A stretch of DNA of 24,259 bases from an uncultured Deferribacteres bacterium (GCA_964014485.1 CAXHAT010000121.1:1-24259); one strand, 5' to 3'; shown: positions 2,447 through 19,224, numbered from the stretch's first letter. Numbers and translations are program-made. The notes: a model not told the origin generated them from the sequence alone.

Positions 2447-2495
2447 CAAAACTCCTCTTTTCTCTAAAAAATATTGGGTGAAATTCTGATCTTTT

Positions 2496-2521
2496 AGATT
2501 CCCGCCTGCGCGAGAATGACG
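2496..2521. repeat. REP-like palindrome of the GTCATTCCCGCG..GCGGGAATC type (dRS3-like core)
   Basis: ATTCCC-GCCTGCGC-GAGAAT at 2498-2517 is one mismatch from ATTCCC-N8-GGGAAT; minus strand reads GTCATTCTCGCGCAGGCGGGAATCT. Confidence 0.65.
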
Positions 2522-2555
2522 AAAAATGTACAATTTTGTCGTTTAAATGGTTAGA

Positions 2556-2582
2556 TCGGAGCGCGACGCATTGCGCCCCGAC
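2556..2582. repeat. REP-like GC-rich hairpin
   Basis: TCGGAGCGCGA-CGCA-TTGCGCCCCGA, arms match 9/11; immediately downstream of the GNAT-BKACE stop; resembles GTAGGGGCG..CGCCCCTAC-type REPs. Confidence 0.55.
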
Positions 2583-2588
2583 GTCACG

Positions 2589-3995
2589 TTAATGTAAATT
2601 CAAAGTGCGCCGGGTTTCTTCGGGGGAAGAAATCTCCCGGCCAATTTCTTTGGCAAAACTCGCCAATCTTTTGACCAATTGCTCGTTTGTTGCGAGCCGT
2701 GTGCGGTTAGAGTCAAAATAGAGATTGTCTTCCAGACCGACGCGCACATGCCCGCCCTTTATAATCGCCGCCAGGTTGATCGGGAGTTGAAATCCGCCGA
2801 CGCCCGTCGCGCCCCAGGCGGCATTTTCCGGCAGCGTTGCAATCAAATGATCCAAATCTATAAGTCGCGCCGGAATCGTTCCGAGACTGCCGAGCAGAAA
2901 ATTGAAATAAAAAGGCGGTTTGAGCCAGCCTTTTTTGCTGAGATATTTGCCATAATTGATCATGCCGGTTTCGAAGATTTCCAACTCTGGCTTGACGGCT
3001 TCTCGGAGCATTTTTTGAGCAAGTCCCTGAATCATTTCCGGCGAATTGACGCTGGCTTGCTTGGGAAAATTGTTTGAGCCCAACGTCAGGCTGGCCATGT
3101 CAGGTCTCGAGTCGCTGGTCAAATTCAGAACTTCGGAACGGGCTTCGAACGTGTTGAAATCGCGGCCGCTCGTGGTGATGTTGATGATCACGCCGGGACA
3201 GCGCCGTCGAATTTCAGGTACAAATTCTTTGTAGGCCTCAGCTTTGTACGTCGGGTTTTCTTCACCGTCGCGGGCGTGAAGATGCAGAACCGCCGCGCCA
3301 GCATTGAAACAGACTTCGGCGTCCGCAATGATTTCTTCCGGTGTGATCGGAACATGCGGCGAATCCGCCTTGCGCGGCACCATGCCGGTGATTGCTGCGG
3401 TGATGATCAATTTTTGATCGAGTACTGGGCGAATCTCTGACAAATCGCCAAAGCCTTCCTCGGCAAACCAATCGACGTCGAGATCGTCTCGGCTGTCAAT
3501 CAGGCGCTTTAGATTTCGCTGGTCGCGCCATTTCTTGAGATCGGCTTCGAGCAGTGTGAACGTATCAATCGCAGGGTCTCCAAAGTCGCTTTCCTTGCGG
3601 CGTGTGTGCAGCTTTTTGTAGCCAAACTTGCGGCAGTACCAGTTGATGTTTTGCGGCGTATCGGTCTCGGTGAAAAGCTGCTCCACGCCCATCGCAACCA
3701 ATCGCTTCATACGAGCGATTTGCAATTGATAGCCGACGCCCTTGCCGCGAAATTCCGGAATCACAGCCAACGAGCCGGTCTCGGCCTGACGATTGTTGAT
3801 GGTCAACTTACTTTCGCCGTCAAGCAAAAAAGCCGCGCAGCCGACGATTCGCGAGTCAACTTTTGCAACTGTAAAATGTTCGATTTTCGGCATAGCGTTA
3901 CGCTCGGCGTGGCCGAAATTTCCCATATTGTATTCTGAAAGAATCTCAATGATTCGGGGTTTGTCAGAAAGCTTGGCGGGTTCAAGATGAATCAT
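2589..3995 (-). CDS. GNAT acetyltransferase fused to a beta-keto acid cleavage enzyme (BKACE/Kce, DUF849) domain
   Basis: N-terminal GNAT motif A (LAVIPEFRGKGVG); C-terminal BKACE motifs LIITAAITG, PITPEEI, GAAVLHLHAR, PDMASL, KPELEIFE, GGHVRVGLEDN. Start taken at ATG 3995 (MIHLEPA); the extension to 4103 runs through a palindromic repeat. Confidence 0.85.
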   Translation of the reverse strand: MIHLEPAKLSDKPRIIEILSEYNMGNFGHAERNAMPKIEHFTVAKVDSRIVGCAAFLLDGESKLTINNRQAETGSLAVIPEFRGKGVGYQLQIARMKRLVAMGVEQLFTETDTPQNINWYCRKFGYKKLHTRRKESDFGDPAIDTFTLLEADLKKWRDQRNLKRLIDSRDDLDVDWFAEEGFGDLSEIRPVLDQKLIITAAITGMVPRKADSPHVPITPEEIIADAEVCFNAGAAVLHLHARDGEENPTYKAEAYKEFVPEIRRRCPGVIINITTSGRDFNTFEARSEVLNLTSDSRPDMASLTLGSNNFPKQASVNSPEMIQGLAQKMLREAVKPELEIFETGMINYGKYLSKKGWLKPPFYFNFLLGSLGTIPARLIDLDHLIATLPENAAWGATGVGGFQLPINLAAIIKGGHVRVGLEDNLYFDSNRTRLATNEQLVKRLASFAKEIGREISSPEETRRTLNLH

Positions 3996-4056
3996 ATTTT
4001 TTTGAAAAGCTCTCGTCAGTTCTTTGTCATTAAATCTGGAAATAGAGTATCGCGAA

Positions 4057-4120
4057 GGAGTGCAAAGCTTGCTTTGCTTTCCATCCTTTTGGCGGAATCG
4101 CAAGGCAAGCTCTGCACTCC
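4057..4120. repeat. Inverted pair of 21-bp REP-like units (REPIN-like)
   Basis: GGAGTGCAAAGCTTGCTTTGC (4057-4077) versus the reverse complement of 4100-4120 (GGAGTGCAGAGCTTGCCTTGC): 19/21 identical, 22-bp spacer; each arm also has an internal hairpin. Confidence 0.8.
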
Positions 4121-4129
4121 AATTTTGGA

Positions 4130-5434
4130 TTAGTTCAATCTTTCAAGAATCATAGCGCATCCGTGCGCTCCGGCGGCGCAGGAAGCGGTGAGTCCGAGCG
4201 TGCCGTCTTCCTTGATTAAGCGATCCGCCGTGGTTGCGACAAGACGCGCGCCGGTTGCGCCGAAGGGATGACCGATTGACAAAGAACCGCCCCAGAGATT
4301 CAGTTTTTCCATCGGCACTTCGCCGACTTTTGAGCGCCTTCCCAAATTGCTTTTGCCGAACTCGGTCGAATTCAAGCAATTTAAATTCGCCAATAATTGT
4401 CCGGCAAAGGCTTCGTGAAATTCGAAAACGTCGATGCTGTTAAAGCGGACGCCGGTCTTTTTTATCGCTTTTGGCGTAGCGTAGGCGGGGCCGAGCAAAA
4501 GTTCTTCGCCGGGGTCTTGCGCCGTAAAAGCATAGCCGCGAAAAGCCGCTTTCGCTTTGTACCCAAGCGCCTTTGCGACGTCTTCAGACATGAGGAGACA
4601 AACGGCGGCGCCGTCGGTCAAAAATGATGAATTTCCTGCTGTGTGCGTGCCGTAAGGCTTGACGAAAGCCGGCCGCAGCTTTGCCAGCTTTTCAACCGTC
4701 GTATCGCCGCGAACGCCGTTGTCTTTTTCGATGTTGGCGAATTTGGGCGGAATGCGCGTCGGCATGATTTGATCATCGAAATAACCGTTTTCAGCCGCTT
4801 TGGCCGCTGACGTGTGAGAGCGCGCTGCGTATTCGTCTTGCTCTTCGCGCGTCACGCCGTATTTTGCGGACATGCGATCGCTGTCCTGGCCCATCGTCCG
4901 ACCCGTTGAGTATTCCGAAATTGACGGCACGTCCGGCAGAAGATCGGCGGGACGCAGACCGCGCAAGAATTTCAGATAATCCCAGGCTTTTTTATATTTT
5001 TGCGTCTCGACCAACTTTTTCCTGAATTTCTTGCGAAACTGGATCGGCACATCCGACGAACTTTCCGTGCCGCCGGCGATAACGACGTCCGCTTGGCCTG
5101 ACTGAATCAATTCAATGGCATTGGCAATGGCGGCGTTGGCGGAAACGCAGGCCATCGTTACGGTGTGTGCCGGGGTGGAGCGGGGAATGCCTGCCGCCAG
5201 CGCGGATTCACGCGCCACATTGCTGGTCGCCAGATTCTGCGCGACCGTGCCCATGATCACCTGATCGATTTTTTCCTTCTCGATTTGCGTTTTATCAAGC
5301 AACCCTTTGATCGCCATGCGGCCAAGATCGTAAGTTGTCATGTCGGCAAAATCGGTGTTGGATTTCAGAAAAGGGGTTCGGCAAGCGTCGACGAGGACAG
5401 CGCGGCGGCTGGGCGCGGCGGTTCGTTTGGCCAT
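4130..5434 (-). CDS. fadI: Acetyl-CoA C-acyltransferase (3-ketoacyl-CoA thiolase), beta subunit of the FA oxidation complex
   Basis: TVTMACVSA (catalytic Cys), GNSSFLTDGAA, FEFHEAFAGQ, GGSLSIGHPFGATG, ASCAAG; HEAF and LLLGP signatures fit the FadI/HADHB type; GGAG RBS. Confidence 0.93.
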   Translation of the reverse strand: MAKRTAAPSRRAVLVDACRTPFLKSNTDFADMTTYDLGRMAIKGLLDKTQIEKEKIDQVIMGTVAQNLATSNVARESALAAGIPRSTPAHTVTMACVSANAAIANAIELIQSGQADVVIAGGTESSSDVPIQFRKKFRKKLVETQKYKKAWDYLKFLRGLRPADLLPDVPSISEYSTGRTMGQDSDRMSAKYGVTREEQDEYAARSHTSAAKAAENGYFDDQIMPTRIPPKFANIEKDNGVRGDTTVEKLAKLRPAFVKPYGTHTAGNSSFLTDGAAVCLLMSEDVAKALGYKAKAAFRGYAFTAQDPGEELLLGPAYATPKAIKKTGVRFNSIDVFEFHEAFAGQLLANLNCLNSTEFGKSNLGRRSKVGEVPMEKLNLWGGSLSIGHPFGATGARLVATTADRLIKEDGTLGLTASCAAGAHGCAMILERLN

Positions 5435-6421: not shown

Positions 6422-7111
6422 ATGTTAGAGAAATTGATGACGGGAATACTTTGGCTGCACATCGCCGCCGGATTTGGGGCCTTTTTTATCGCGCCGGTTG
6501 TGATGATCGTCAAAAAGGGCGGGAAGACGCACCGCCAATGGGGAATTTATTACTTGTACGCCATGACGGTTGTGGCTGTATCGGCGATTTTGCTCACTTT
6601 CTATCGACCCAACCTGTTTCTGTTTTTTATCGCGATTTTCAGTTATTATTTTGCCTTTTCCGGCTACCGCGTGCTGCGCAGAAAACGCCCGGACAAAGGT
6701 CAAAAAGCGGAGCGTCTCGATTGGAGCGTCGCTCTCGCTGCGCTTGCCGTATGCGCGGGCATGGCCGTTTGGGGCGTGAGTTTGATTGTGAGCGATAATT
6801 TCGGATTTGCCGCAATTTTGTTGACATTCGGCGTCCTGGGCGGCGTCGGCATTGGCAGCGACGTGCGCAAGCTTGCACGTCCCTCGCTCGAAAAAAACGC
6901 CTGGTGGTTCGATCACATGGGCGGCATGGTAGGTTCATACATCGCAGCCGTGACGGCTTTTTCCGTGCAGAATTTTACATTCATGCCGCCGATTCTGCGC
7001 TGGCTCTGGCCGACGGCAATCGGCGCGATTGGACTGACGGTTTGGATTCGATATTATCGCGCTAAATTTTCACGAAGCAAAAAGACGGCGGTCCTTGAAC
7101 CCGCCGCATGA
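6422..7111 (+). CDS. DUF2306-like polytopic membrane protein
   Basis: About 7 hydrophobic segments; LHIAAG, KKGGKTHRQWG, WWFDHMGGMVGSYIAAVTAF motifs; AAGGAG RBS before ATG 6422. Confidence 0.75.
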   Translation: MLEKLMTGILWLHIAAGFGAFFIAPVVMIVKKGGKTHRQWGIYYLYAMTVVAVSAILLTFYRPNLFLFFIAIFSYYFAFSGYRVLRRKRPDKGQKAERLDWSVALAALAVCAGMAVWGVSLIVSDNFGFAAILLTFGVLGGVGIGSDVRKLARPSLEKNAWWFDHMGGMVGSYIAAVTAFSVQNFTFMPPILRWLWPTAIGAIGLTVWIRYYRAKFSRSKKTAVLEPAA

Positions 7112-8196
7112 GTTTGACGTCGATGAACGAATTGAAGAATACAATTGTGCGCCGTTTGTCGCCTTGCTTTCAACGACGGAACCTGTTGACGCTTGCAGGC
7201 GTCTGCGCCGTGATTGCCTTATTGCTGACAGGGCTCTCAACTGGTTCGAAAACAGGTGACTTGCTGTTGAACTTTGCGATCAATTTTATCTTCTCGTTCG
7301 CTATCGGCATGTCCATATTTCTGTTCATCCAGTTGACCAACGCAACGACGGCGCCGACCGTTCTAAAAAAGGGCGCTTTCCTCACCGGCTCTTTCGTATT
7401 TGGCGGCGTTTTAGGTACGATCATCGCCGTCGGCTTGTTGAAAGCGATCTGGCAAGAACAGGCTGTGATCGAGAATTTTGCAGACCTTTTGACGACGAAT
7501 ATTTTTCTTGCCGTCATTTTCGGCGTTATCGTCACAAGCTACTTTGTCTTGCACGATAGATTCCATGAAGCGGCGGCGAAACTGGCGGCAAAGGAAATCA
7601 ACGAGCAGCGCCTGCTGCGTTTGAAAACCAAAGCCGAGCTTGAAGCGCTTCGTGCGAAGATCAACCCGCACTTTCTCTTCAATACGCTCAACTCCGTCGC
7701 CAGCTTGATTCCTGAAAATCCGACCAAGGCCGAGGAAATGGTGCAAAAACTTGCGCACGTTTTCCGTCATACTTTGGATGCGAGCAACAAGGAATTCGTT
7801 ACGTTAGCCGAAGAATTGGAGACAATTCGGCAATACCTGGACATAGAAAAAGTCAGATTGGGGAAACGCCTGACATTTGAAATTGCAGCGGAAGAAGAGC
7901 TTGGCGAAACTGAAATTCCCGGCCTGTTATTACAGCCTTTGGTCGAGAATTGTATCATTCACGGAATCTCAGACACGCGATCAGGCGGCAAGATTTATGT
8001 CAATTGTTCGCGTAGCAACGGGTTTTGTAACATTGAAATTTGCGATTCGGGCAACGGATTTCAGGAAACCGAGACAACGGAAGGATTCGGGCTTACAGCG
8101 GTGAAGGATAGATTATCGTTGGCCTATAGTGAAGAGCATTTGCTGAGTTTGGAAAACGACGATGGATTCAAAGTAACGGTGAAAATTCCGCTATGA
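7108..8196 (+). CDS. LytS/YehU-family membrane sensor histidine kinase
   Basis: N-terminal TM helices; LEALRAKINPHFLFNTLN H-box; TLAEELE..YLDIEKVRLG; LLQPLVENCIIHG; DSGNG, GFGL; ATGA overlap with upstream gene. Confidence 0.93.
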   Translation: MSLTSMNELKNTIVRRLSPCFQRRNLLTLAGVCAVIALLLTGLSTGSKTGDLLLNFAINFIFSFAIGMSIFLFIQLTNATTAPTVLKKGAFLTGSFVFGGVLGTIIAVGLLKAIWQEQAVIENFADLLTTNIFLAVIFGVIVTSYFVLHDRFHEAAAKLAAKEINEQRLLRLKTKAELEALRAKINPHFLFNTLNSVASLIPENPTKAEEMVQKLAHVFRHTLDASNKEFVTLAEELETIRQYLDIEKVRLGKRLTFEIAAEEELGETEIPGLLLQPLVENCIIHGISDTRSGGKIYVNCSRSNGFCNIEICDSGNGFQETETTEGFGLTAVKDRLSLAYSEEHLLSLENDDGFKVTVKIPL

Positions 8197-8951
8197 AATT
8201 CAAAACAATATTGGTGGATGACGAAGAACTAGCGGTCAAACGATTGCGGCGATTGCTGGAACCGCACTCAGGAGTTGTTGAAATTGTTGGTTCTGCTAAC
8301 GACGGTTTTGAAGCGATCCAAAAAATTGAGCAATTGCGACCGAATGTGGTTTTTCTCGATGTTCAAATGCCCGAGTTGAACGGGTTCGAAGTGATTGAGC
8401 GGCTGAATCATCCTCCCATTATTGTTTTTGTCACCGCCTACGACGAATATGCGCTCAAGGCGTTTGAAACCACAGCCGTTGATTATTTGCTTAAACCCGT
8501 TGAACCTGAACGGCTCGCGCAATCCATTCAAAAACTCCGCCGATTGTACGATAATCAAGATGGAGCGGCTTCCAACTCAACGCAGGAAAAGATTGACGCC
8601 TTGCTTGCGGCTGTCAGTACTCAGCCTTTAAAACGTTTACAGGTTCGGATTGGTGACCGCATCCGTTTTGTGGATGTGGATCGAATCTGTTTTTTTCGCG
8701 CCGCCGACAAATATGTCGAAGTTCACCTTGAGCGGGAACATTTCCTGATCACAGATTCTTTGAACGCTCTGGAATCGAAGCTCCCTACGGATGATTTTGT
8801 CCGCGTTCATCGTTCGACCGTCATTAATTTGAATTATCTCGGCGAATTCATTCGCAGCGGAGCGGGCGCATACCGCGTTCAAATGCGAAACGCTTCTAAA
8901 ACAATCCTGCCGGTCAGCCGCGCTTCAAAAAGAAAGCTTGGTTTGAGCTAA
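8193..8951 (+). CDS. LytR/AlgR-family response regulator (REC + LytTR)
   Basis: ILVDDE, FLDVQMP, FVTAYDEYALKAFE, DYLLKP; LytTR motif FVRVHRSTVINL..PVSR; ATGA overlap with the kinase. Confidence 0.95.
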   Translation: MKFKTILVDDEELAVKRLRRLLEPHSGVVEIVGSANDGFEAIQKIEQLRPNVVFLDVQMPELNGFEVIERLNHPPIIVFVTAYDEYALKAFETTAVDYLLKPVEPERLAQSIQKLRRLYDNQDGAASNSTQEKIDALLAAVSTQPLKRLQVRIGDRIRFVDVDRICFFRAADKYVEVHLEREHFLITDSLNALESKLPTDDFVRVHRSTVINLNYLGEFIRSGAGAYRVQMRNASKTILPVSRASKRKLGLS

Positions 8952-9046: not shown

Positions 9047-11011
9047 CTACTTCATCAACATAAGCTTCTTCTGTTGGACAAAATCGTTCACGGTCAATCT
9101 GTACAAATACAAACCGCTGGCGACCGGCCGCTCGCCGTCGTCGCGCGCGTCCCAGGTGACGTTGTAAAGCCCTGGTGAATATTCGCCGGAGACGAGGGTG
9201 CGGACGAGTTGGCCTGCACTATTGAAGATTCGCAGCGAAACCTCGCCCGATTGCGGCAGAGCGAAACGAATCTGCGTGCTCGGGTTGAACGGATTGGGGT
9301 AGTTTTGGTGCAGCGCATATTCCGTTGGCGTTGCGCTGCTCAATTCAGCAATGGCTTCAACACTGACCGGGATTTTTGCGTTGCCAGGGCCAAGCAGCGC
9401 GCCCGGCGAGTTGTGGCCAATGAAAAGACAGTCGCGCTCGATTTCGATACTTTTCGCGCAGATCGCACCGCGCAGTTGCGTGTTTTTCTTGAGAACAACG
9501 TCGGCGTTCGGCGCCAGGAGCGTACCGAGAAAATACGCTTCTTTGCCTAACTCCAATTCGTCGGATTGCAGTGTGCAAAAGAGAACCTGGTCGCTGTCGT
9601 CTTCGTCGTCAGGTAAGCGGATTTCGACTTCCGGGCCAAGTTCAAGATTGTCGGTGACATTGATCGCGATTGGGCCGCCGGAAACGTCGAGATCAAAGAC
9701 GGCCTCCTCTTCTTCGTAGCGGATTTCTTCAAAAAAGTACTCGCCGCTGGAGAGTTGAATTGTCGCTTTGTCTTCCAACGTCAGCACGCCGTAAGTGCCT
9801 GGGGCGAGGCTAAGCGAACCTTCTTCCGGCACGGTGTGATTTGCGCCGCCGGCTGAGAAAGACTTGCTCCCAAGCGTGATTGCGCTCACCGAAATGGTGG
9901 TTTGCGAACCGTTGATCGTGGCGTCGCCGGAAATGTCGAGGCTCGACGCTTCGAGATCACCATTAATGGTGTTTTCCTTTTCAACTTCGATCTCGCCGAC
10001 CGCCGTGAAATTCACGTCATACTCGCTGGGATCGCCTTTTTCGACAGTAATGTCGCCATTTGAAAAAACGCTTCCTTCAGGCGTTTCATGCTTGGTTTTG
10101 TTCAATACAAAATCTCCGTCAGCCAGAAAAACGAAATCGAAAACCGTGACGGTAACTTGATCCGTATCAGTGCAGCCGTTCGCGTCGGTGACTTCAACGG
10201 TGTAACTTGTGGTCGCCGCCGGACTGGCGTTGGGATTTTGGGCGGAAGGATCGTCGAGTCCCGTCGTGGGCGTCCAGTCGAAAGTGAAAGGCCCTTGCCC
10301 GCCGCTGACGTTTGCCGTCAAGCCGACTGTTTCGCCGACACACATGCCATCGCCAGTCGCCGTCGAGCCTGCGGTAACGGTCGGTTCATCGAAATTGTCG
10401 ACGTTTTCGGAAAACGAGTCATTACTGGAGTTGGAATCGCCGGTAAGATCAGTCGACGCAGTGACGGTGTAACTTCCGCTGGTCGAAAGATTTGCACTCG
10501 TGCTGAACGAATGCGTAGCCGAGCTCATTGCGGCAATCGTGCCGGCAAAAGATTCCGTTACAGGGCCGGTTCCAACGGGGCCGGTGACTTCAAAAGTCAC
10601 GTCGAAATTACTCGCTGGCACGGTGCTGAAATTCATGATTTGAATTTGCACAGTTTCGGCGTTACCCAGACCGCAGCCGTCGACGGGAGACAAAATTGCC
10701 GTGACGCCGACGTCGCCTTGTTTGACCTCAGTGCAAGTCGGATCGGCACTGCTTGTTGCGTCGTCAGGATCATCCGTATTGAGATCGGAAAAATTTGTCC
10801 CGGAAACCGTGCCCTGGTTGCACACTTCCATCACCGAAGGGGCGAGGCCGCTATTTACGGTGACTTCAAAGCAAACGACGATGCTGTCGCCGGGATTGAT
10901 CGTGCCGATAGTCATCGGCGTACTCGGAAATTGCGCCAGGGCCGGGCTCGCTACGGTAAAAGCGAGCAACACCGACAGCAGGGCGATCTTGAATGCATTT
11001 TTATTGTTCAT
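9047..11011 (-). CDS. Secreted multidomain protein: half DUF11-like domain, CARDB-like, PKD/SprB-like, acidic beta-solenoid and FlgD-Ig/T9SS type A-like C-terminal domain
   Basis: GGAGA RBS then signal peptide MNNKNAFKIALLSVLLAFTVASPALA|Q; GDVGVTAILSP..DSNSSND (CARDB-like); WTPTTGLDDPSAQNPNASPAATTSYTVEVTDANGC; C-terminal YALHQNYPNPFNPSTQIRFALP..WDARDDGERPVASGLYLYRL..KKLMLMK. Confidence 0.85.
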   Translation of the reverse strand: MNNKNAFKIALLSVLLAFTVASPALAQFPSTPMTIGTINPGDSIVVCFEVTVNSGLAPSVMEVCNQGTVSGTNFSDLNTDDPDDATSSADPTCTEVKQGDVGVTAILSPVDGCGLGNAETVQIQIMNFSTVPASNFDVTFEVTGPVGTGPVTESFAGTIAAMSSATHSFSTSANLSTSGSYTVTASTDLTGDSNSSNDSFSENVDNFDEPTVTAGSTATGDGMCVGETVGLTANVSGGQGPFTFDWTPTTGLDDPSAQNPNASPAATTSYTVEVTDANGCTDTDQVTVTVFDFVFLADGDFVLNKTKHETPEGSVFSNGDITVEKGDPSEYDVNFTAVGEIEVEKENTINGDLEASSLDISGDATINGSQTTISVSAITLGSKSFSAGGANHTVPEEGSLSLAPGTYGVLTLEDKATIQLSSGEYFFEEIRYEEEEAVFDLDVSGGPIAINVTDNLELGPEVEIRLPDDEDDSDQVLFCTLQSDELELGKEAYFLGTLLAPNADVVLKKNTQLRGAICAKSIEIERDCLFIGHNSPGALLGPGNAKIPVSVEAIAELSSATPTEYALHQNYPNPFNPSTQIRFALPQSGEVSLRIFNSAGQLVRTLVSGEYSPGLYNVTWDARDDGERPVASGLYLYRLTVNDFVQQKKLMLMK

Positions 11012-11057
11012 TGAGTTTTCTCCAAATAATTTGATCAACATTTCGCTGTCAGTGTGA

Positions 11058-14000
11058 TTAGTTAGGCTCAGTACAATTCGCGTTGTTATTGTTTGAGACT
11101 GTTTGGTCCGGGAAAACAAAATTTCCAGTGTTATTGTGTGGAGCGCCTTGCATTTGTGCTTCTGTCACGGCGCCAGTTCCGCTCCCTTCAACTTGAATCG
11201 TACTGCCGGAAGCCTCATCCAGGACCCATTCCTCGTTTGCGCTCGTGGCGCAGGTGTTATTCTTCAAATCCAGACAAATGCTCGCAGTGTCGAGAGTCTG
11301 AAAAGTAACCGGGGCCGAACTCGAGCTTGCGAAATTATTATTCGTCACGGTTGCGTTTATAATGCTAGTGTCATCAGATTCAACTTCCATAATCTGGTCA
11401 CCACTGTTGGCGTTACCGGTGTTGTCCGAGCGAATGTCATTGCCATTGGCAACGCTGCCGCCTATAAGCAAATTCATCGTGCCAGACCGATTTTCGATAA
11501 AGACGCCATCCCGCGTGCCGCCAATGTTATTGGCCGTGGTACCTGATATTGCGCCGGTCCCGAAATCATTGCGCGTGATGGTGACGTCAAAGGTCGTGAC
11601 CGTAGACCGGTTTGAGATGTACAGCGCTTCCCGGTTGCCTATGTCATCAATCGTATTGTTATCAATGAGTAAATCCATCGACGTGACGGTTGTTGATTGC
11701 TCATTGACAATATTGATTCCGCGACGATGATCGATGCTGGAGGCGTTTGTAGCAGAAAGTGAGTTCCCGGAAATCGTCAAGTCCAGCGATGTGCCGCCGC
11801 TGACTGTTGATGCGCCGTAGCCTGCATTCAAAAGACCGGCATTGAAGTTCCCTGCCTTCGCTAAATCCCTGTATGTGTTATTCGAAATGACAAATGTCGC
11901 AACAACAGAGCCTCCATTCGAATGATTGGTATCACCTGTGCCAACCGCTGTCGAATTCTCGATAAGGTTGTTGGTGAAATTGTGGTTGAGCGTTCCAGAG
12001 GTCTGCGTGCCGCTGCCTTCATATGCGTCAATTTGAAACGAAGCCGGATCGTTGTTATTCCAGCGGCTGTCTTCCACGTTCACCGTCGTTGTACCAATGT
12101 TGCCTCGGAACTGTACGAGCACGAGCGATTGCCCGGTGGTTGAGTTGTTGAAAAACGAATTATCGATTGTCAGGTTCAGTCCCATAGTCCCGGTGAAGTT
12201 ATGAGCAACGATGGCGCTTGTGCCGGCATTATCAACGTCGGTAATTGTGAGCTGATCGAGCAGGCAAGTCCCGTCTACTTCATCCATATCGATGGCGTCG
12301 CCGCCAGGATCGAGAATGTTCATATCCGTCAAGCTCAACGCCCGCGAGTCGTCGACGTCGATGGCGTCGCCTGTCGTGTTTTGGATCGTGCCGCCGGAAG
12401 CGTTGCCGCCCTGGGTGACGCCGCCGCCATCCCCTGTGACGGTCAAGCCGCCGTTAGAGCCTGTCGTGTTCAACACGATTGCATTTGCCGGTCCACTTGC
12501 GCCGGTTCCTGCAGAGATGCTTTCGAATGTCAGACCGGGATTAATCGTGGTACTAGTGACATTTAGCGCCGTTCCCGTCGTTGTCAAAATAGAATTACCG
12601 TTGCCGCTGACGTTCAGCGCACCAAAGGTATTGCTCGTGGCGCTGAAGCCGGTTCCACTGGTTGCGTCGATGTCCAAGCCGCCATTGGAGAAGGTGACTG
12701 TCGTGGTCGCGTTGCCGGTCACCGTCACGGCTATATTCGCGCCTGTATTCAGGACTTTCGAAGTGCCGCTAAATGTTACAGGACTGGACGTGTTGTTCGA
12801 GACGTTTATGCCTGTTGCGCCCGCTGCGCTATTGGAAAGTGCGCCGCTGAAGGTGATGGCGCCGCCGGTTTTGTTGGTGATCTCGATCAAGCGTCCGGCG
12901 TTGTTCTTGGTAACGCTGCCGGGGTAGGTCATCGCCACGGAGCCGGTATTCACCAAAACCGCCGTCCCGGTCGGATTGCTGATCGTCCCGGAAGTCACAA
13001 ACAGATTGCCTGATACGCCGACAAGATTAATCGCTTGCGCGGCAGCATTGGTCGAAGAGAGCGTATTGAAAGAAACCGCCGAGCCAAAACTCCCGCTGGT
13101 CGAGATATTGAGCGCGCCGCCAGTGCCTGTCACGTTTACCGTATTGATTGTTGGCGAGCCGACTGCACCGCCATTGAAGCCGAAGCCCGTTGTGTTGCCC
13201 ACATTGAGTCCGCGCACCGTGTTGCCGCTGGCGAGATCAACGCCGTGATTGGTTCCGCCTGTGGTTGAAATGACCGGAGCCGCCATTGTGCCGCTTGCGA
13301 AAGTCGCGTATGCACTGATACTGTTGGCGTTAGCCGTGAACTCGGTGTTAAAAGCTACGGCTTCGCCAATCAATTCTTGCGAATTCCGCAGATTAATGCC
13401 GTCGGTCTCGGAATATGCGCCGCTTCCTCTTTGCAGACTGATGTGATCGCCGTTTTTGGGATCGGGCACTGCGCCGGTTCCTGCATTTGCCGTGTTGAAG
13501 CTGGCGATGCTTGTAAAGGGATCGTTAAACGTGCCGCGATTATTTCCGCCGCCGCTGTTGCTGATAAACCAGGCCATGTCGGAAACCGTGATCGTTACCG
13601 TCGCATTTGAGGAATTACCAAAACCGTTGCCAACGGCATAGGTAAAAGAGTCGCCGCCTTCGTAGCCTGGGGGCGGATCGTAGGTGAAGCCGCCGTCCGC
13701 GTTCAAGGTAACGAAACCAGTTACGCCGCCGCGACCGGTTGCAGTCGTTGCGGTTGCTGAGCCTACGTTGGCTAACAAGCCGTTAACGAGGGTGACGTCG
13801 ATTTGATCTCCGCCGTCCACGCCTGAGCCGTTGTTGGCATGAATCGCTCCGGCGCTATGTTCAATGGCAATATTTCCCGTCGCTGTGAACGCGTCGGCGA
13901 CAGCGTCTGGTCTCAAGCCGACCGCTACTGTAACCGTGCCAACACTGCTGCCCGCCGTATTTTGAAGCGTGTAGGTAAATTGATCCGTTCCCGTAAAAAT

Positions 14001-15605
14001 TGCGGAAGGCGGCGTGTAGGAAAAACTGCCGTTTGCGTTGACAACCACCGTTCCGCCCTGCGTAGATGTTGCGTCAAAGGCGGAAATCGTCGCTACGGGA
14101 AAGCCTAAGGCGTCATTCGCCAAGAGATCGTTCGCGCCGTCAGGTACGTTAAGTGTCGTGTTGATGGCTGTGTGATAGGGGTGCGCCGTCGTGCTGTTCG
14201 CGGGCAAGCCGCCGTTGGGATCGTCCACCGCGACGGGCGGGCCGTTCACCTGCACGTCAAAAGAGCATTGCGCCGAAAGATCAACCCCGCTGTTGGCCGT
14301 GCCGCCGTTGTCCTGAACTTGAACCGAGACGGTTGCTATGCCCGCCATGCCGGAAAGCGTGTAGCTCAAGTCGCCGTTGGTCAAATTAACGGTGGGCTGA
14401 GCGCTGAAGAGCGCATTGTTGTTATTACTGATAATCAGAGAAAGCGTCTGTCCTGATTCATCCGCGGGGCCGGTTGTGATACCTGTCGCCCAGCCGTTCA
14501 CAGTAATCGCCGGGCCGTCTGTATTGTTGTGCGTCTGATTACCGCCGCAAGTTATCGTCGGCGCGTCATTGACCGGGGTGATTGTAATATCCGCCGTCCC
14601 TTCTTCTTCATTGCCGTCATCATCGACAACTTTGAATTTAAAAGTATCAGGGCCGTTTTCATTGGCGTTGGGTGAATAAGTCACGCTTGCATTGTTCGGC
14701 GGGTTTTGCGTGAATGCGCCTATAGAGCCTTTCGTCGGCGAGGTCGTTGAGCTGAACGTCAGATTGTCTCCGTCCGGGTCGACGCCGTCAAGGCTGAGTG
14801 CGGTTGGCGTGTCTTCTAGAACAGTGAAAGATTCGTTTTGCGCCAGCGGCGTCGTGTTCAGCGATCCAGCGACATACGTCGTGTTGGCGTCGATCAAATC
14901 CGCGTACTCGGCGCCGGTTGCATCCATATTTCCGGTGTTTTTGATTTTGACCGTGTACTTGATGGTCTCGCCGGGCGTCGCAGCGCCGTCGCTGTCTGTG
15001 TCCGGCTTGACTTCGTCGATCTTGGTCGCTTCCATAGTCACGGCTTGCAGCTTCAAGTCGCGATCGCCTGCGTTTTCCGCATTGTTGTCGGAAATGCGAC
15101 GCTTGCTGAAATGGTTTTTGAAGCTGAGAATTAACGTTCGCGAGGGATCATGCTCCGCCACGCTGACGCCAAGGCCGCCGTTGGGGTGAGCAGCAAAGCT
15201 TGCGTCAAGAAGCGTTTGCTTACCTTCCAAATCGACTTGCACGGCTTGCAAATCAGCGAGCTGTGTGCGTAAATCGCCGCTCAGGAATTCTACGCGTTCA
15301 TTTTCTATAGTAAATTGATTTTTTCGGGGGAGTTTGAATTGAATGACGGAAAGATCAACATGCGGCTTGATCGTAAGATTGGCATTCATACGAACGCCGG
15401 AACCGAAGAAAACGGCGTTAACGCCAGGGAAAACATCTTTTTGAACGGTGCTGCCTTTCGTCGGCAATTCGGCGCGCCAGGTCAGCAAATCCACGCCCGC
15501 GGATTCGCCTTTTTGCTCACTCGCGCCTTTGAAACCGGTGAGCGCTACCGCCGTCATGGCAAGCGCAATTAGCCGGTGACTGCGAAATACTCTCCTTTTC
15601 TCCAT
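11058..15605 (-). CDS. Large secreted adhesin-like protein (~1515 aa): four cadherin/Big_9-like Ig repeats plus a long right-handed beta-helix
   Basis: Basic-then-hydrophobic N-terminus from ATG 15605 (GAGGGA RBS); Ig repeats with LEDTP..DPDGD, PVNDAP, PVAVDD..LLAND, GSFSYTP, DQFTYT; beta-helix entry motif WFISNSGGGNNRGTFNDPFTSI then T/G/N/S-rich solenoid repeats; no recognisable C-terminal anchor. Confidence 0.82.
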   Translation of the reverse strand: MEKRRVFRSHRLIALAMTAVALTGFKGASEQKGESAGVDLLTWRAELPTKGSTVQKDVFPGVNAVFFGSGVRMNANLTIKPHVDLSVIQFKLPRKNQFTIENERVEFLSGDLRTQLADLQAVQVDLEGKQTLLDASFAAHPNGGLGVSVAEHDPSRTLILSFKNHFSKRRISDNNAENAGDRDLKLQAVTMEATKIDEVKPDTDSDGAATPGETIKYTVKIKNTGNMDATGAEYADLIDANTTYVAGSLNTTPLAQNESFTVLEDTPTALSLDGVDPDGDNLTFSSTTSPTKGSIGAFTQNPPNNASVTYSPNANENGPDTFKFKVVDDDGNEEEGTADITITPVNDAPTITCGGNQTHNNTDGPAITVNGWATGITTGPADESGQTLSLIISNNNNALFSAQPTVNLTNGDLSYTLSGMAGIATVSVQVQDNGGTANSGVDLSAQCSFDVQVNGPPVAVDDPNGGLPANSTTAHPYHTAINTTLNVPDGANDLLANDALGFPVATISAFDATSTQGGTVVVNANGSFSYTPPSAIFTGTDQFTYTLQNTAGSSVGTVTVAVGLRPDAVADAFTATGNIAIEHSAGAIHANNGSGVDGGDQIDVTLVNGLLANVGSATATTATGRGGVTGFVTLNADGGFTYDPPPGYEGGDSFTYAVGNGFGNSSNATVTITVSDMAWFISNSGGGNNRGTFNDPFTSIASFNTANAGTGAVPDPKNGDHISLQRGSGAYSETDGINLRNSQELIGEAVAFNTEFTANANSISAYATFASGTMAAPVISTTGGTNHGVDLASGNTVRGLNVGNTTGFGFNGGAVGSPTINTVNVTGTGGALNISTSGSFGSAVSFNTLSSTNAAAQAINLVGVSGNLFVTSGTISNPTGTAVLVNTGSVAMTYPGSVTKNNAGRLIEITNKTGGAITFSGALSNSAAGATGINVSNNTSSPVTFSGTSKVLNTGANIAVTVTGNATTTVTFSNGGLDIDATSGTGFSATSNTFGALNVSGNGNSILTTTGTALNVTSTTINPGLTFESISAGTGASGPANAIVLNTTGSNGGLTVTGDGGGVTQGGNASGGTIQNTTGDAIDVDDSRALSLTDMNILDPGGDAIDMDEVDGTCLLDQLTITDVDNAGTSAIVAHNFTGTMGLNLTIDNSFFNNSTTGQSLVLVQFRGNIGTTTVNVEDSRWNNNDPASFQIDAYEGSGTQTSGTLNHNFTNNLIENSTAVGTGDTNHSNGGSVVATFVISNNTYRDLAKAGNFNAGLLNAGYGASTVSGGTSLDLTISGNSLSATNASSIDHRRGINIVNEQSTTVTSMDLLIDNNTIDDIGNREALYISNRSTVTTFDVTITRNDFGTGAISGTTANNIGGTRDGVFIENRSGTMNLLIGGSVANGNDIRSDNTGNANSGDQIMEVESDDTSIINATVTNNNFASSSSAPVTFQTLDTASICLDLKNNTCATSANEEWVLDEASGSTIQVEGSGTGAVTEAQMQGAPHNNTGNFVFPDQTVSNNNNANCTEPN

Positions 15606-15879: not shown

Positions 15880-16179
15880 TCAATTGAACATCGCTTCATA
15901 GACATAGCCGTCCGGCTCATCGTAAATAGGCACGAGAAACAAGCCGAATTCCCCCATTTCCTGGTGAGAAATTTTGTAAAGCTTTTGCTGAAGAAAAACG
16001 GACTTGTCAGTTTTGAGGAGTAGAGAGAAAGGTCGGCGCGTTTGTTCGTAAACATGCTCCCGGTCGTCGCGGCCCAAGTCTTTAGCCTCAATGAGACGCG
16101 CGTCCAGCCTTGTTTGATCGTCCGCTTCGATAGAAAAGTTTTGTTCGATGTATTGGGTAAAATCGTCCAGTTTTAGCAT
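15880..16179 (-). CDS. DUF6916-like small protein (copy 3, canonical end)
   Basis: RRPFSLL, LQQKLYKISHQEMG, LFLVPI, terminal YEAMFN; AAGGA RBS. Confidence 0.8.
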   Translation of the reverse strand: MLKLDDFTQYIEQNFSIEADDQTRLDARLIEAKDLGRDDREHVYEQTRRPFSLLLKTDKSVFLQQKLYKISHQEMGEFGLFLVPIYDEPDGYVYEAMFN

Positions 16180-16204
16180 TTAAGTTCCTTTGAATTCCTC
16201 AGCT

Positions 16205-16672
16205 TCACTTTGGTCGCCATTCCATCAAATCGTAAACGCCTTGATCTTCGAGCTTCTCAAATCCAAGTCGATGATAAAGCCGCATGGCCGGGTTATTTTT
16301 TTCGACGTGGATAGTGACCGGCGCATTCCTGTTTTGGCCCTCAGCGAGAATATCTTTCATCAATTTTTTGCCCAGCCCTTTGCCGCGATGCTCCGTGAGC
16401 AAGGCGATGTCGATCAAGCGAATTTCGTTCTCACGATAATCAATATAGAGCCGACCGACAGGTTCGCCATCCAGCAAAATTATTTGAAACCGCGCTTGTT
16501 TGAACTGCTCCATATAGTATTGATGCTGTGCGTCGAACTGTTGTTGCAAAAATTCGCTTTTTTGCTGCGGCGTCCAGGGCACGGCGGCAAGCTCCATTTC
16601 GCGCGTGCTGGCGTATACTCGCGTCAAAAAAGCACTGTCGGATTCTGTGATTGGGCGAAAAGTCAAATCCAT
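16205..16672 (-). CDS. GNAT N-acetyltransferase of the type linked to tail-collar gene triads
   Basis: VYASTREMEL..FLQQQFDAQHQYY; IRLIDIALLTEHRGKGLG; HVEKNNPAMRLYHRLGF. Confidence 0.9.
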   Translation of the reverse strand: MDLTFRPITESDSAFLTRVYASTREMELAAVPWTPQQKSEFLQQQFDAQHQYYMEQFKQARFQIILLDGEPVGRLYIDYRENEIRLIDIALLTEHRGKGLGKKLMKDILAEGQNRNAPVTIHVEKNNPAMRLYHRLGFEKLEDQGVYDLMEWRPK

Positions 16673-16678
16673 TTGTGA

Positions 16679-17110
16679 CTAATATTTTTCTTTTTCAGAT
16701 GATTTCGGCTTCTCCAATTTGATCAACGGCATGGTCCCGGTTTCCTGGACTTCAAGCATATGGGGTTCGTCATGCGCTATATTCGGGGTGAAATTAAAAA
16801 CCGCTTCATACTGCCTCCCGCCGTGCTCGAGATCAACCGGCGTTAAAAAAAGCTGGCCTTTGCCGAGTTTCTTATGTTTGACCGTGTAAGTGTTCTGTTC
16901 CAGCTTGTGCGATTTTGCCGTCCGAAAAAGCAGTGAGAAGCCGCGTCTAGGCAGGCTTGCGCCGTGGCTTGTATCATGCGCAAAATCTGATTGATGAATT
17001 TTAACCTCGACTAAATCCGCCGTGACTGGCCGTTTCCTGCCTTCGACTTGAATATGAAAACTCTCGCCAATCAGTGGGCCAAAATCAGAACTTTTGAAAC
17101 GATGCGCCAT
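16679..17110 (-). CDS. DUF6916-like protein (copy 2, 37-aa C-terminal extension)
   Basis: RRGFSLLFR, LEQNTYTVKH, LFLTPV, YEAVFN; GGAG RBS. Confidence 0.78.
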   Translation of the reverse strand: MAHRFKSSDFGPLIGESFHIQVEGRKRPVTADLVEVKIHQSDFAHDTSHGASLPRRGFSLLFRTAKSHKLEQNTYTVKHKKLGKGQLFLTPVDLEHGGRQYEAVFNFTPNIAHDEPHMLEVQETGTMPLIKLEKPKSSEKEKY

Positions 17111-17135
17111 TTTTATCTCCGTCTATACTTGAGAA

Positions 17136-17483
17136 TTATTCCAAAGCTGCGGAATGATCCGCGTTAAAAACCGCTTCGAATTGAGGTCGCTCTTCTTTGT
17201 CGTCTTCAATCGGCGACAGGAAAACGTCTATTTTGCCAACATCTTTGTTCTCAATAGTGAACATGTCTTGCGGCAGAGATGAGCCCTTGGAAGCGCGCAA
17301 AATGATAGAAAAGCCGCGCTTGATTTTAGTCGCCGCGTCGCTTGTATCGGTTGCGAAATCGGAGTGGTGAACCGAAACCTCGGCAAGCTCAGCTTTGACG
17401 GGCATGGCCATGCCTTCCTTGTAAATCATAAATTCGCCGCCCAAGTGCTGTGCGAAATCAACGCTTTTGATTTTATCTAACAT
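17136..17483 (-). CDS. DUF6916-like protein (copy 1)
   Basis: KRGFSIILR, LPQDMFTIEN, VFLSPI, FEAVFN; clearly paralogous to 16679..17110. Confidence 0.78.
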   Translation of the reverse strand: MLDKIKSVDFAQHLGGEFMIYKEGMAMPVKAELAEVSVHHSDFATDTSDAATKIKRGFSIILRASKGSSLPQDMFTIENKDVGKIDVFLSPIEDDKEERPQFEAVFNADHSAALE

Positions 17484-17521
17484 CTGTTCTCTCTCAAAAT
17501 TAAGTTTTGAGCGTGTTGTGA

Positions 17522-17623
17522 AATTGAGCGTTGGAGTAATGGATTATTGGATTGATGCACAAGCTCGATCATTGTCCGAGCTTAGTCGCCATTCCAAGAT
17601 TCCAAAACTCCATGACGCCAATT
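17522..17623. repeat. Inverted arrays of degenerate 8-bp TGGAnnnn repeats
   Basis: Left arm TGGAGTAA TGGATTAT TGGATTGA; right arm reverse-complemented TGGCGTCA TGGAGTTT TGGAATCT TGGAATGG; both arms begin with AATTG. Confidence 0.65.
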
Positions 17624-17629
17624 CGATCG

Positions 17630-18151
17630 TTAGCTTCGTGACGGATACAGCCCAACAAGAGCAATGATGAAATTCATAGTCAGGAAAGGTTGCATGTTGT
17701 TGTGCTCCTGAGAGCCTCCGGTTGAAGGCAAAGATTGCGTGGCCATAGCGCCGGTCGATACGCCAGTAGGAAACCGATACATATCATTCCCGGCGCCCGG
17801 CAGTCTGGCGCTGCTTGGGGTGAGAGAATCCCCGTCCTCCTGCGAAGCTCGAAGCTGGTGCGTGTGATTTGGCATTTGCGCTTCGGAGAGGGTAACGTGC
17901 TCGACTCCGCCTCTTTGTCCCAAGCGGCGCGAAGTTAAGCCCGGGCCGCGACCAGGGTGCATTGGTGCACGACCTTGTAGATTGGGCAATGCCGTCGTCG
18001 TGCGACCGTCGCCGCCGTAAGTCGTGCCGATAAGAGAAAACAAAGCGGTGTTTTGCGCAATTGGCAGCAATTGGCCGTTGCAAAACGCCCAGCCGCGCGG
18101 CGCAAAGTTCCCCGCGAAAATGCGTATTTCAGCGGTAAAAGGTTCTGACAT
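17630..18151 (-). CDS. Phage tail-collar domain protein (MdpB / short-tail-fibre-like), paralog 3
   Basis: MSEPFTAEIRIFAGNFAPRGWAFCNGQLL..ALFSLIGTTYGGDG..LPNLQGR collar motif; HTH; HNNMQP; terminal GLYPSRS. Confidence 0.92.
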   Translation of the reverse strand: MSEPFTAEIRIFAGNFAPRGWAFCNGQLLPIAQNTALFSLIGTTYGGDGRTTTALPNLQGRAPMHPGRGPGLTSRRLGQRGGVEHVTLSEAQMPNHTHQLRASQEDGDSLTPSSARLPGAGNDMYRFPTGVSTGAMATQSLPSTGGSQEHNNMQPFLTMNFIIALVGLYPSRS

Positions 18152-18174
18152 CTTTATTTCCTTTTTGTTTTGCG

Positions 18175-18690
18175 TTAATGTCTGGACGGATAAATGCCGA
18201 ATAAGGCGATAATGAAATTAATGCAGAGATAAGGCATCAAATTTGTGTGTGATCTTGAGCCGCCGACATTGGTGATAGACGCTCCATTCATATTTGCCGG
18301 GTCAAGTTGATCCGTGTAGACGTCGCCGAAGCCCTGGGCCAAGCCGTTGCCAACTGGATCACGGGTGGTAGATGCGCTTGTAGTTGCAGTTAGAAGGTGC
18401 GTGTGAGAAGGCAGTTGATTGACTGTAAGCGTTTCATTTTCGGAGCCAAACTTTGCGCCTAGCCGACGAGGGGAAAGCCCTGGACCAGAACCGGCGTGAA
18501 TCGGAATGCGACCGCGCATGTCCGGCAGGCCAAAAGTCGTCCGCCCGTCGCCGCCGTATATGGTGCCGAGCAAACTAAAGAGCGCGTCGTTTTGCGAAAC
18601 CGCCAGCAATTGCCCGTCGCAAAAAGCCCAGCCGCGCGGAGCAAAATTGCCGGCGAACATGCGAATTTCACCTACAAAAGGTTCTGACAT
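18175..18690 (-). CDS. Phage tail-collar domain protein (MdpB-like), paralog 2
   Basis: Same collar motif (GEIRMFAGNFAPRGWAFCDGQ..LGTIYGGDG..LPDMRGR); HTH; terminal GIYPSRH. Confidence 0.92.
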   Translation of the reverse strand: MSEPFVGEIRMFAGNFAPRGWAFCDGQLLAVSQNDALFSLLGTIYGGDGRTTFGLPDMRGRIPIHAGSGPGLSPRRLGAKFGSENETLTVNQLPSHTHLLTATTSASTTRDPVGNGLAQGFGDVYTDQLDPANMNGASITNVGGSRSHTNLMPYLCINFIIALFGIYPSRH

Positions 18691-18708
18691 AATTGATTCT
18701 CCTATGGG

Positions 18709-19224
18709 TTAATTGCGTGACGGAAAAAGCCCTTGCAAAGCGATGCAAAAATTGACCGCTATCGTCGGCTGCATATTGTTGTGCGCCTGCCCGCCGCCGA
18801 CATTAGCGACCGAAGAATTGTGCAACGTGACGGCGGAGCCAAAACTGGCGTATAGATTCCCCGCCGCACGCGCAAATACAGCCCCGTCCGGTTGATCGCT
18901 CAGATTTGTGCCGTCATTGGTCCCAATAAGTTGGTGATCGTGGTTCGGCATTTCAGCAGTGCTCAGCGTATGCGTTTCTTCGCCGCTTTTTTGACCTTGC
19001 TGATGAAACGTCCCGTTGGAAGAACCGACATGCATCGGTGTGCGGCCCCGTAAATCCGGCAATGCAAAAGACGTTCGTCCATCGCCGCCGTAAGTCGTGC
19101 CCAACAATGAATAGAGAGACTGGTTTTGGTTGATCGGCAAAATCTGTCCGTCGCAAAAAGCCCAACCCCGCGGTGCGAAGTTGAACCCGACGATTCTGAT
19201 TTCCGCCAAAAAAGGCTCGCTCAT
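18709..19224 (-). CDS. Phage tail-collar domain protein (MdpB-like), paralog 1
   Basis: AEIRIVGFNFAPRGWAFCDGQ..LGTTYGGDG..LPDLRGR; HDH; HNNMQP; terminal GLFPSRN; GGAGG RBS. Confidence 0.92.
   Translation of the reverse strand: MSEPFLAEIRIVGFNFAPRGWAFCDGQILPINQNQSLYSLLGTTYGGDGRTSFALPDLRGRTPMHVGSSNGTFHQQGQKSGEETHTLSTAEMPNHDHQLIGTNDGTNLSDQPDGAVFARAAGNLYASFGSAVTLHNSSVANVGGGQAHNNMQPTIAVNFCIALQGLFPSRN

Follow-up and report, generated by a model that had tools for sequence, protein, structure and literature searches.

We describe two adjacent genes in a stretch of DNA of 24,259 nucleotides (nt), hereafter the window, from an uncultured Deferribacteres bacterium (GCA_964014485.1, CAXHAT010000121.1:1-24259), whose secreted products each appear to carry one half of the same CLIPPER/DUF11 domain. 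Both genes and all of their parts lie on the minus strand, and positions are counted from the first letter of the window. Gene 1 (11058-15605) encodes, on translation, a 'head' adhesin of 1515 amino acids (aa) that starts MEKRR. Gene 2 (9047-11011) encodes a 'stalk/anchor' protein of 654 aa, delimited by its translation and by Pfam and NCBIfam matches. The spacer between them (11012-11057) measures 46 nt and holds a GGAG motif 8 nt before the ATG of gene 2; a terminator scan of these 46 nt returned no terminator-like site.

The adhesin is built, in order, of a signal peptide, an N-terminal beta domain, the first half of a CLIPPER domain, Big_9/cadherin-like repeats, a beta-helix-like region and a C-terminal Cys. 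The half domain occupies residues 186-255 (14841-15050), on the evidence of PF01345, of TIGR01451 and of the alignment of Asp236 to the crystal structure 9IFR. The PF01345 (DUF11) match at 14790-15080 covers profile positions 9-55 of 114 only (28.2 bits, cut-off 24.6) and that of TIGR01451 positions 7-49 of 53 (35.8 bits, cut-off 24). Directly behind the half domain Pfam places a Big_9 domain (residues 287-378), part of a module (11061-14840; Big_9, Cadherin_5 and tandem-95 matches) that forms a nested insert in single-chain relatives. Within this module, Big_9/cadherin-like repeats begin at residue 256 and give way to a long beta-helix-like region at about residue 677 (nt 13577 downwards). 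The protein ends in ...NANCTEPN, with a conserved Cys1511, and searches of Pfam and NCBIfam at E up to 1 found no Por_Secre_tail, CHU_C or other C-terminal sorting match.

The product of gene 2 consists of a signal peptide, the second half of the CLIPPER domain, a CARDB-like domain, an Ig_7/PKD-like domain, a DUF7305 beta-helix and a type IX secretion system (T9SS) C-terminal domain of type A. Its first residues, MNNKNAFKIALLSVLLAFTVASPALA, resemble a signal peptide and lead into QFPSTPMTIGTINPGDS. Read by eye, the signal peptide spans residues 1-26 (10934-11011) and ends in ...SPALA before QFPS, an ...LAQ-FP junction that is also present in relatives; the predicted mature N-terminus is Gln27 (10931-10933). 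The second half of the domain (residues 27-96, 10724-10933) thus forms the mature N-terminus and contains Asn65 and the pair Cys64/Cys93. At the other end of the protein, the T9SS type A sorting domain (9059-9301) scores 40.5 bits against TIGR04183, with a cut-off of 23, and was recovered at 40.2 bits in a scan of the whole genome. An initial annotation of this locus had described an anchorless adhesin that passes from the first half of a DUF11-like domain straight into cadherin-like repeats, next to a partner gene with its own ribosome-binding site and signal peptide, the missing half at its mature N-terminus and a T9SS-like C-terminal domain. The matches above agree with this description on each point.

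That the two segments belong to one domain is best seen by comparison with relatives in which it is undivided, for which P0123 and P0124 served as natural references. P0123, from a genome of the same class (G036), has a contiguous domain with PF01345 on residues 22-112. Identity to this domain is 51% for the gene 1 segment (against residues 9-74) and 48% for the mature N-terminus of gene 2 (against residues 102-167). When the PDB was searched with the sequence of P0123, only chance matches came back. We also built our own profiles of the first and second halves and scanned all open reading frames (ORFs) of the 8.4 Mb genome. There was one strong match to the first half (108 bits) and one match to the second (92.8 bits), and these are the two neighbouring genes; the remaining DUF11 repeats of the genome score 7-13 bits with these profiles. 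Since the one strong match of each profile falls in one of two neighbouring genes, the pairing of the halves is not due to chance. The comparison supports the view that the segments of gene 1 and gene 2 are the N- and C-terminal halves of one CLIPPER/DUF11 domain, and within this genome neither half has a possible partner besides the other.

We then placed the pair among its relatives. A scan of one genome per species with a four-sequence alignment gave 42 loci, mostly from Pyrinomonadaceae and other Acidobacteriota, and a metagenome scan added three, of which two are short, KSB1-like pieces of gene 1 and the third is a nested form. Among the 48 loci tabulated (L028-L030 were excluded as possible duplicates), 26, mostly from Acidobacteriota, hold both halves in one ORF, 791-1795 aa apart, on either side of the Ig/beta-helix insert, so that the single-chain homologs foreseen by the initial annotation do exist. 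Six more have the halves in two ORFs, four are contiguous and 12, mostly at contig ends, show the first half only. Judged from these sequences, the usual layout in the family is a CLIPPER domain that carries a large adhesive module within one of its loops. In the single-chain family, the domain is followed by variable Ig-like stalk domains (HYR, Calx-beta, Big_9, PKD and DUF7933). Unlike in the 26 nested loci, the two segments of the window pair are not in one chain. The end of gene 1 aligns to the conserved Cys-containing end of the insert ('..FGVxC') of single-chain homologs. These reach the second half through a low-complexity linker of about 100-150 aa, in place of which the window has a stop codon, the spacer and a signal peptide. 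Because its relatives hold both halves in one ORF, we read the window pair as a gene-fission form of a nested-insert adhesin.

Six two-gene pairs were found: the window itself (G000), four genomes of the same phylum (G001, G003, G008 and G014) and L063. In the phylum, relatives of gene 1 are present in 6 of 167 genomes, all of one order and distributed over four genera; the 167 include the unpublished G016 and G023, which have no gene 1 match and support none of our claims. These relatives share 27-43% identity with the window in the N-terminal region of gene 1. In G001, G003, G008 and G014 the next gene encodes a signal peptide and then, within a few residues, the second half; G027 has gene 1 only, on a short contig that ends before the next gene. 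L063, from a high-GC unclassified bacterium, has its two genes apart, with accessory genes between them. L061 looks by eye like a further two-gene form, but its second half falls below the detection of our own profile and it was left uncounted. A collection of 5.8 billion proteins yielded four more proteins (P0009, P0275, P0276 and P0277) that run from a signal peptide into the second half and then to a T9SS tail; a search with P0276 among the 167 genomes matched only the shared C-terminal cassette. Gln stands at the predicted mature N-terminus in G001 and G014 (..LAQ-FP..) and in P0009, P0275 and P0276 as well, and P0277 reads ..LAQ-GP.. at this site. In every case aligned, about six residues separate the cleavage site from the first strand of the second half. 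In a representative library, the second-half profile matched 3942 proteins at E up to 0.001, but the best 150 of these 3942 are mostly giant proteins with contiguous repeats, and such matches are unfit for counting split forms.

Could the break simply be one gene interrupted by a sequencing or assembly error? The assembly is fragmented (465 contigs), which would favor this explanation. However, the stretch 10924-11074, or more, is present without differences or gaps in contigs of three public runs of one study (one of these runs may be the source sample), so an assembly slip does not account for the junction. At the break stand a stop codon, 46 nt that include a ribosome-binding site and a hydrophobic signal peptide of 26 residues that single-chain relatives lack, and the same layout recurs in other assemblies (G001, G003, G008 and G014). 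We consider the chance of an artefact to be close to negligible.

Structure prediction was applied to the chains both together and separately. The two segments were co-folded, each with its own alignment (25 and 24 rows). Three runs gave interaction prediction scores from aligned errors (ipSAE) of 0.57, 0.58 and 0.59, against 0.02 for the best control, agreed in at least 95% of contacts and gave the partner a predicted local distance difference test (pLDDT) score of at least 73. With the true partner, the pLDDT of each half was 71-75; an unrelated partner lowered it to 36-37. The mark set by the tool is reached by 116 of 157 solved complexes and by 2 of 215 mismatched pairs; scores of 0.60 or less comprise 18 of the 157 solved complexes and both of the passing mismatches, and the verdict of the tool on our pair is 'weak support'. 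As split-domain halves may pass by their likeness to solved folds, we take the co-fold as a sign of consistency, not as proof. Modelled alone with AlphaFold2, the half domain of gene 1 (within residues 25-355) forms two strands followed by 34 residues without regular structure (pLDDT 69-87), and that of gene 2 (within residues 27-240) is mostly coil (pLDDT 63-80) ahead of a beta-rich CARDB-like domain. Neither chain is predicted to complete the sandwich by itself, as the initial annotation would have it.

These data bear on the possibility that the half domains are relics of a rearrangement, left on independent proteins with no mutual binding. The weak grade of the co-fold would allow it, and so would the many proteins in which the C-terminal cassette of gene 2 is joined to another head. 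It is at odds with the persistence of the two-gene arrangement in relatives at 27-43% identity and in L063, and with the constant position of the cleavage site six residues before the first strand of the second half. The halves are also more conserved than the remainder of each protein, with a mean pairwise identity of 0.41 against 0.29 in gene 1 and of 0.50 against 0.39 in gene 2. Furthermore, each half is unique in the genome, and a half sandwich of three or four strands has no evident way to fold alone. We therefore regard relics as very unlikely. That the halves of gene 1 and gene 2 assemble into one domain is, on the contrary, well supported by this comparative evidence and in our view highly probable.

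DUF11 has been renamed CLIPPER and described as CnaA-like, with a Lys715-Asn806 isopeptide bond and Asp748 seen by crystallography (9IFR) and a K715A variant that is less stable (PMC12617251). According to the same report, the loops of CnaA and CnaB folds can accommodate inserted domains. The putative counterparts of these residues in the window are divided between the chains: Lys195 (15021-15023) and Asp236 (14898-14900) in the half domain of gene 1, and Asn65 (10817-10819) in gene 2. The initial annotation had named these three codons, correctly, and its choice appears to coincide with the isopeptide triad of the family. Our first-half profile reaches 9IFR weakly (E 0.02), with Asp236 on Asp748, and Lys195 and Asn65 were assigned to the first-strand and penultimate-strand motifs by motif and co-variation. 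Lys and Asn are both legible in 31 nested or split sequences, of which 25 have the two residues together. Two sequences have lost only Lys (L023 and L072), four have lost both residues (L022, L051, L063 and L065) and none has lost only Asn; Asp is missing only from L022, L051 and L063, all of which also lack Lys and Asn. If the losses were independent, all four losses of Asn would fall among the six losses of Lys with a hypergeometric probability of about 5e-4, a figure not corrected for relatedness. Lys, Asp and Asn are thus kept or lost as one functional unit, which fits a bond. The full triad is kept in the window, G001 and G014, and a covalent joint is plausible in this genome.

The genome also encodes the machinery for export by the T9SS: its matches to SprA (693 bits) and PorU (825 bits) each exceed the cut-off. 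Its 8.4 Mb further hold at least 150 TIGR04183-type T9SS type A C-terminal domains that score over cut-off. With a sorting domain over cut-off and the machinery in the same genome, the product of gene 2 can be assigned by sequence to the T9SS type A cargo. Gene 1 differs in that it has a signal peptide and no sorting domain. For this reason we arrive, by exclusion, at piggy-back export, in which the adhesin would travel attached to gene 2. The T9SS is reported to transport folded and very large cargo (PMC9251779). Export on the tail of gene 2 would be the simplest and most economical route for the adhesin, and we give it about even odds. As an observation on the organism, at least 150 type A domains make a very large T9SS secretome for a bacterium outside Bacteroidota.

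Taken together, we propose, with a probability of roughly 0.55, that the window pair are fission products of a nested-insert CLIPPER adhesin whose halves reassemble, probably with a Lys-Asn seal, and leave the cell through the T9SS by way of gene 2. Both proteins would be exported by Sec. In the periplasm, the strands of residues 186-255 of gene 1 and of residues 27-96 of gene 2 would form one sandwich and so join the head to the stalk/anchor. An autocatalytic bond between the chains would probably seal this joint, as in the Jo-In pair made from RrgA; we think a seal probable because Lys195 and Asp236 on chain 1 and Asn65 on chain 2 are all intact. CLIPPER is a CnaA-like Ig fold that ordinarily closes on itself by a Lys-Asn isopeptide bond. 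The C-terminal domain of gene 2 would then take the complex out through the T9SS, to be displayed at the surface. In its fullest form, this proposal amounts to a natural, genetically encoded Tag/Catcher, in which an inter-protein Lys-Asn bond serves both as the joint between head and stalk and as the adhesin's passage through the T9SS, while triad-less relatives dock non-covalently. This fuller version we hold tentatively, at somewhat less than even odds.

Several results weigh against the proposal. Pfam finds no DUF11 match on the second half when it is searched alone (residues 27-104), and the profile of this half has only chance matches in the PDB and does not reach 9IFR. Lys195 and Asn65 were placed without an alignment to 9IFR. 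The pLDDT of 69-87 for the first half on its own does not clearly show that it is unfolded in isolation. The output of the co-fold is a score, without contacts or coordinates, and is classed as weak; it lends the inter-chain pairing claimed in the initial annotation weak support (ipSAE 0.58 against 0.02 for the best control). Its expectation that Lys, Asp and Asn would be conserved likewise holds in part: Lys and Asn are both kept in 25 of the 31 sequences, but three of the six two-gene pairs (G003, G008 and L063) lack Lys, G008 and L063 also lack Asn and Asp, and L061, the possible seventh pair, lacks Lys and Asp. Loss of the triad is in fact commoner in split forms (3/6) than in nested ones (3/25). 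As the split form persists without the triad, covalent locking is not what keeps it in general.

It may then be that the halves rebuild one domain non-covalently only, with a triad that was inherited from a single-chain ancestor and is unreactive between chains. The pairs without a triad speak for this, all the more as they keep intact genes and signal peptides, and a co-fold that yields a score without geometry is compatible with it. On the other hand, the window, G001 and G014 keep all three residues, and the joint retention or loss of these residues across the 31 sequences points to a working bond where they are present. In addition, the separately expressed halves of RrgA D2 are reported to form their bond in trans (PMC5333627). 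We find a purely non-covalent joint rather improbable on balance, and put the inter-chain Lys195-Asn65 bond, overall, at an even chance.

A further objection concerns the exit of the adhesin. Our literature searches, from which subscription-only papers were outside scope, found no described cargo without a sorting domain that rides the T9SS on a partner. The halves might thus pair while the adhesin is not carried by the T9SS, either staying in the periplasm or leaving by another route and meeting the gene 2 protein at the surface. L063 and possibly L061 are in line with this, as they are split and yet have a gene 2 relative without a T9SS tail. Against it, gene 1 encodes a Sec signal peptide and nothing recognisable as a sorting signal, the T9SS can handle cargo that is folded and very large according to the report cited above (PMC9251779), and an adhesin of cadherin-like repeats and a beta-helix has no obvious periplasmic role. 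We judge this alternative unlikely.

Within the family, the window pair resembles the CLIPPER domain of 9IFR (PMC12617251) in that its first half is over the profile cut-off and its putative triad would be of the same kind, in the order reported for that structure, with Lys in the first strand, Asp in the '..D..' strand and Asn in the penultimate strand. It also shares the setting of long surface adhesins of Gram-negative bacteria. It differs in that the domain is divided between two polypeptides, so that any bond would join two chains, in an A-B loop that is about eight residues longer and in a second half too divergent for Pfam or for the 9IFR sequence. The nested layout of the 26 single-chain relatives recalls RrgA D2 and GBS104 (3TXA), in which two segments likewise flank an adhesive insert. 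The insert of RrgA D2 is a von Willebrand factor A domain; that of the window family is made of cadherin-like repeats and a beta-helix. In RrgA D2 both Asp and Asn are in the C-terminal segment, whereas in the window family Lys and Asp are in the N-terminal segment, or chain 1, and Asn is in chain 2. The hosts of the window family, moreover, are diderm and without sortase pili, and the chain in the window is broken. In RrgA D2 and GBS104, from Gram-positive pilus adhesins, a Lys-Asn bond clasps the two segments around the insert.

Jo-In, SpyTag/SpyCatcher and DogTag/DogCatcher are isopeptide domains cut in the laboratory and are widely used as protein glues. As in the window, two proteins each carry part of an isopeptide domain. 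The closest likeness is to Jo-In, the halves of which come from either side of a nested insert, as do those of the window pair. The engineered pairs are products of the laboratory, whereas the window pair are two natural genes, each with its signal peptide, and the bond is predicted only. Expressed separately, the halves of RrgA D2 (Jo and In) are reported to reassociate with a loss of 17 Da and to form no bond once Lys, Asp or Asn is mutated (PMC5333627). As for the T9SS type A cargo, gene 2 has the expected signal peptide and type A domain.

A number of other features were observed in the two genes. The N-terminal beta-rich domain of gene 1 (residues ~37-159, 15129-15497) is DUF7948-like (PF25778, 29.6 bits, cut-off 27). 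In the AlphaFold2 model it has a pLDDT of about 72-95, and a disordered linker lies between it and the half domain. Foldseek, run with this model against the PDB, gave generic Ig-like matches only, with template modelling (TM) scores below 0.3 over the whole model. At the other end of the adhesin, Cys1511 (11073-11075) corresponds to a Cys that nearly all single-chain relatives conserve where the insert ends, together with an upstream Cys in an 'LC.D..GN' context; in gene 1, Cys1444 and Cys1452 lie in this upstream region (11250-11285). The conserved pair is probably a disulfide that caps the beta-helix.

In gene 2, relatives carry both or neither of Cys64 (10820-10822, in CNQG, just before Asn) and Cys93 (10733-10735, in DPTC), a pattern that suggests a disulfide joining the penultimate and last strands, beside the putative isopeptide. 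The DUF7305 beta-helix and T9SS tail (9047-10141, residues ~291-654) form a cassette found on many heads, including YWTD propellers, FG-GAP and an endonuclease. It is mostly preceded by an Ig_7/PKD-like domain and has undergone a strong expansion in the phylum, where 27 of the 167 genomes (G016 and G023 included in the tally) match it at E up to 1e-60, often in several copies. L025 (G036:C38, 2840-3400 and downstream) is one ORF of 1353 aa with a contiguous CLIPPER domain followed by a gene 2-type DUF7305 beta-helix and T9SS tail; this layout, neither split nor nested, is likely to picture the state before insertion.

Upstream of gene 1, and also on the minus strand, lies an accessory cassette (15880-19224) in which Pfam identifies three DUF6916 genes, one GNAT acetyltransferase gene and three phage-tail-collar-domain genes (PF07484). 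A cassette of three collar-domain genes, DUF6916 genes and one or two GNAT genes adjoins the nested or split adhesin in several phyla (L036, L038, L040, L043, L044, L046, L051, L062 and L063). At L063, three collar-domain genes and a GNAT gene stand between the genes of the two halves. The cassette may modify the adhesin or help to assemble it. The flanks of the locus (320-5434 and 7108-8951) look ordinary, with a fatty-acid oxidation set (FadB-like, thiolase and BKACE fused to GNAT) on one side and a LytTR-type two-component pair on the other.

Self-forming isopeptide bonds of CnaA/CnaB-type domains are, to our knowledge, known only within one chain, and our searches of the literature, with subscription-only papers again outside their scope, found no natural split isopeptide domain. 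If our proposal is true, the family would offer new and possibly orthogonal ligation pairs, for which the triad-less relatives would be built-in non-covalent controls. It would also make testable, for the first time, the passage of a protein across the outer membrane through the T9SS by means of a partner's sorting domain. With the 26 single-chain relatives, the nested-insert architecture known from Gram-positive pilus adhesins is seen in Acidobacteriota and other diderm phyla as well. If the proposal holds, the split form would mean that evolution itself uses split isopeptide domains to assemble surface structures from a head and a stalk that are encoded separately.

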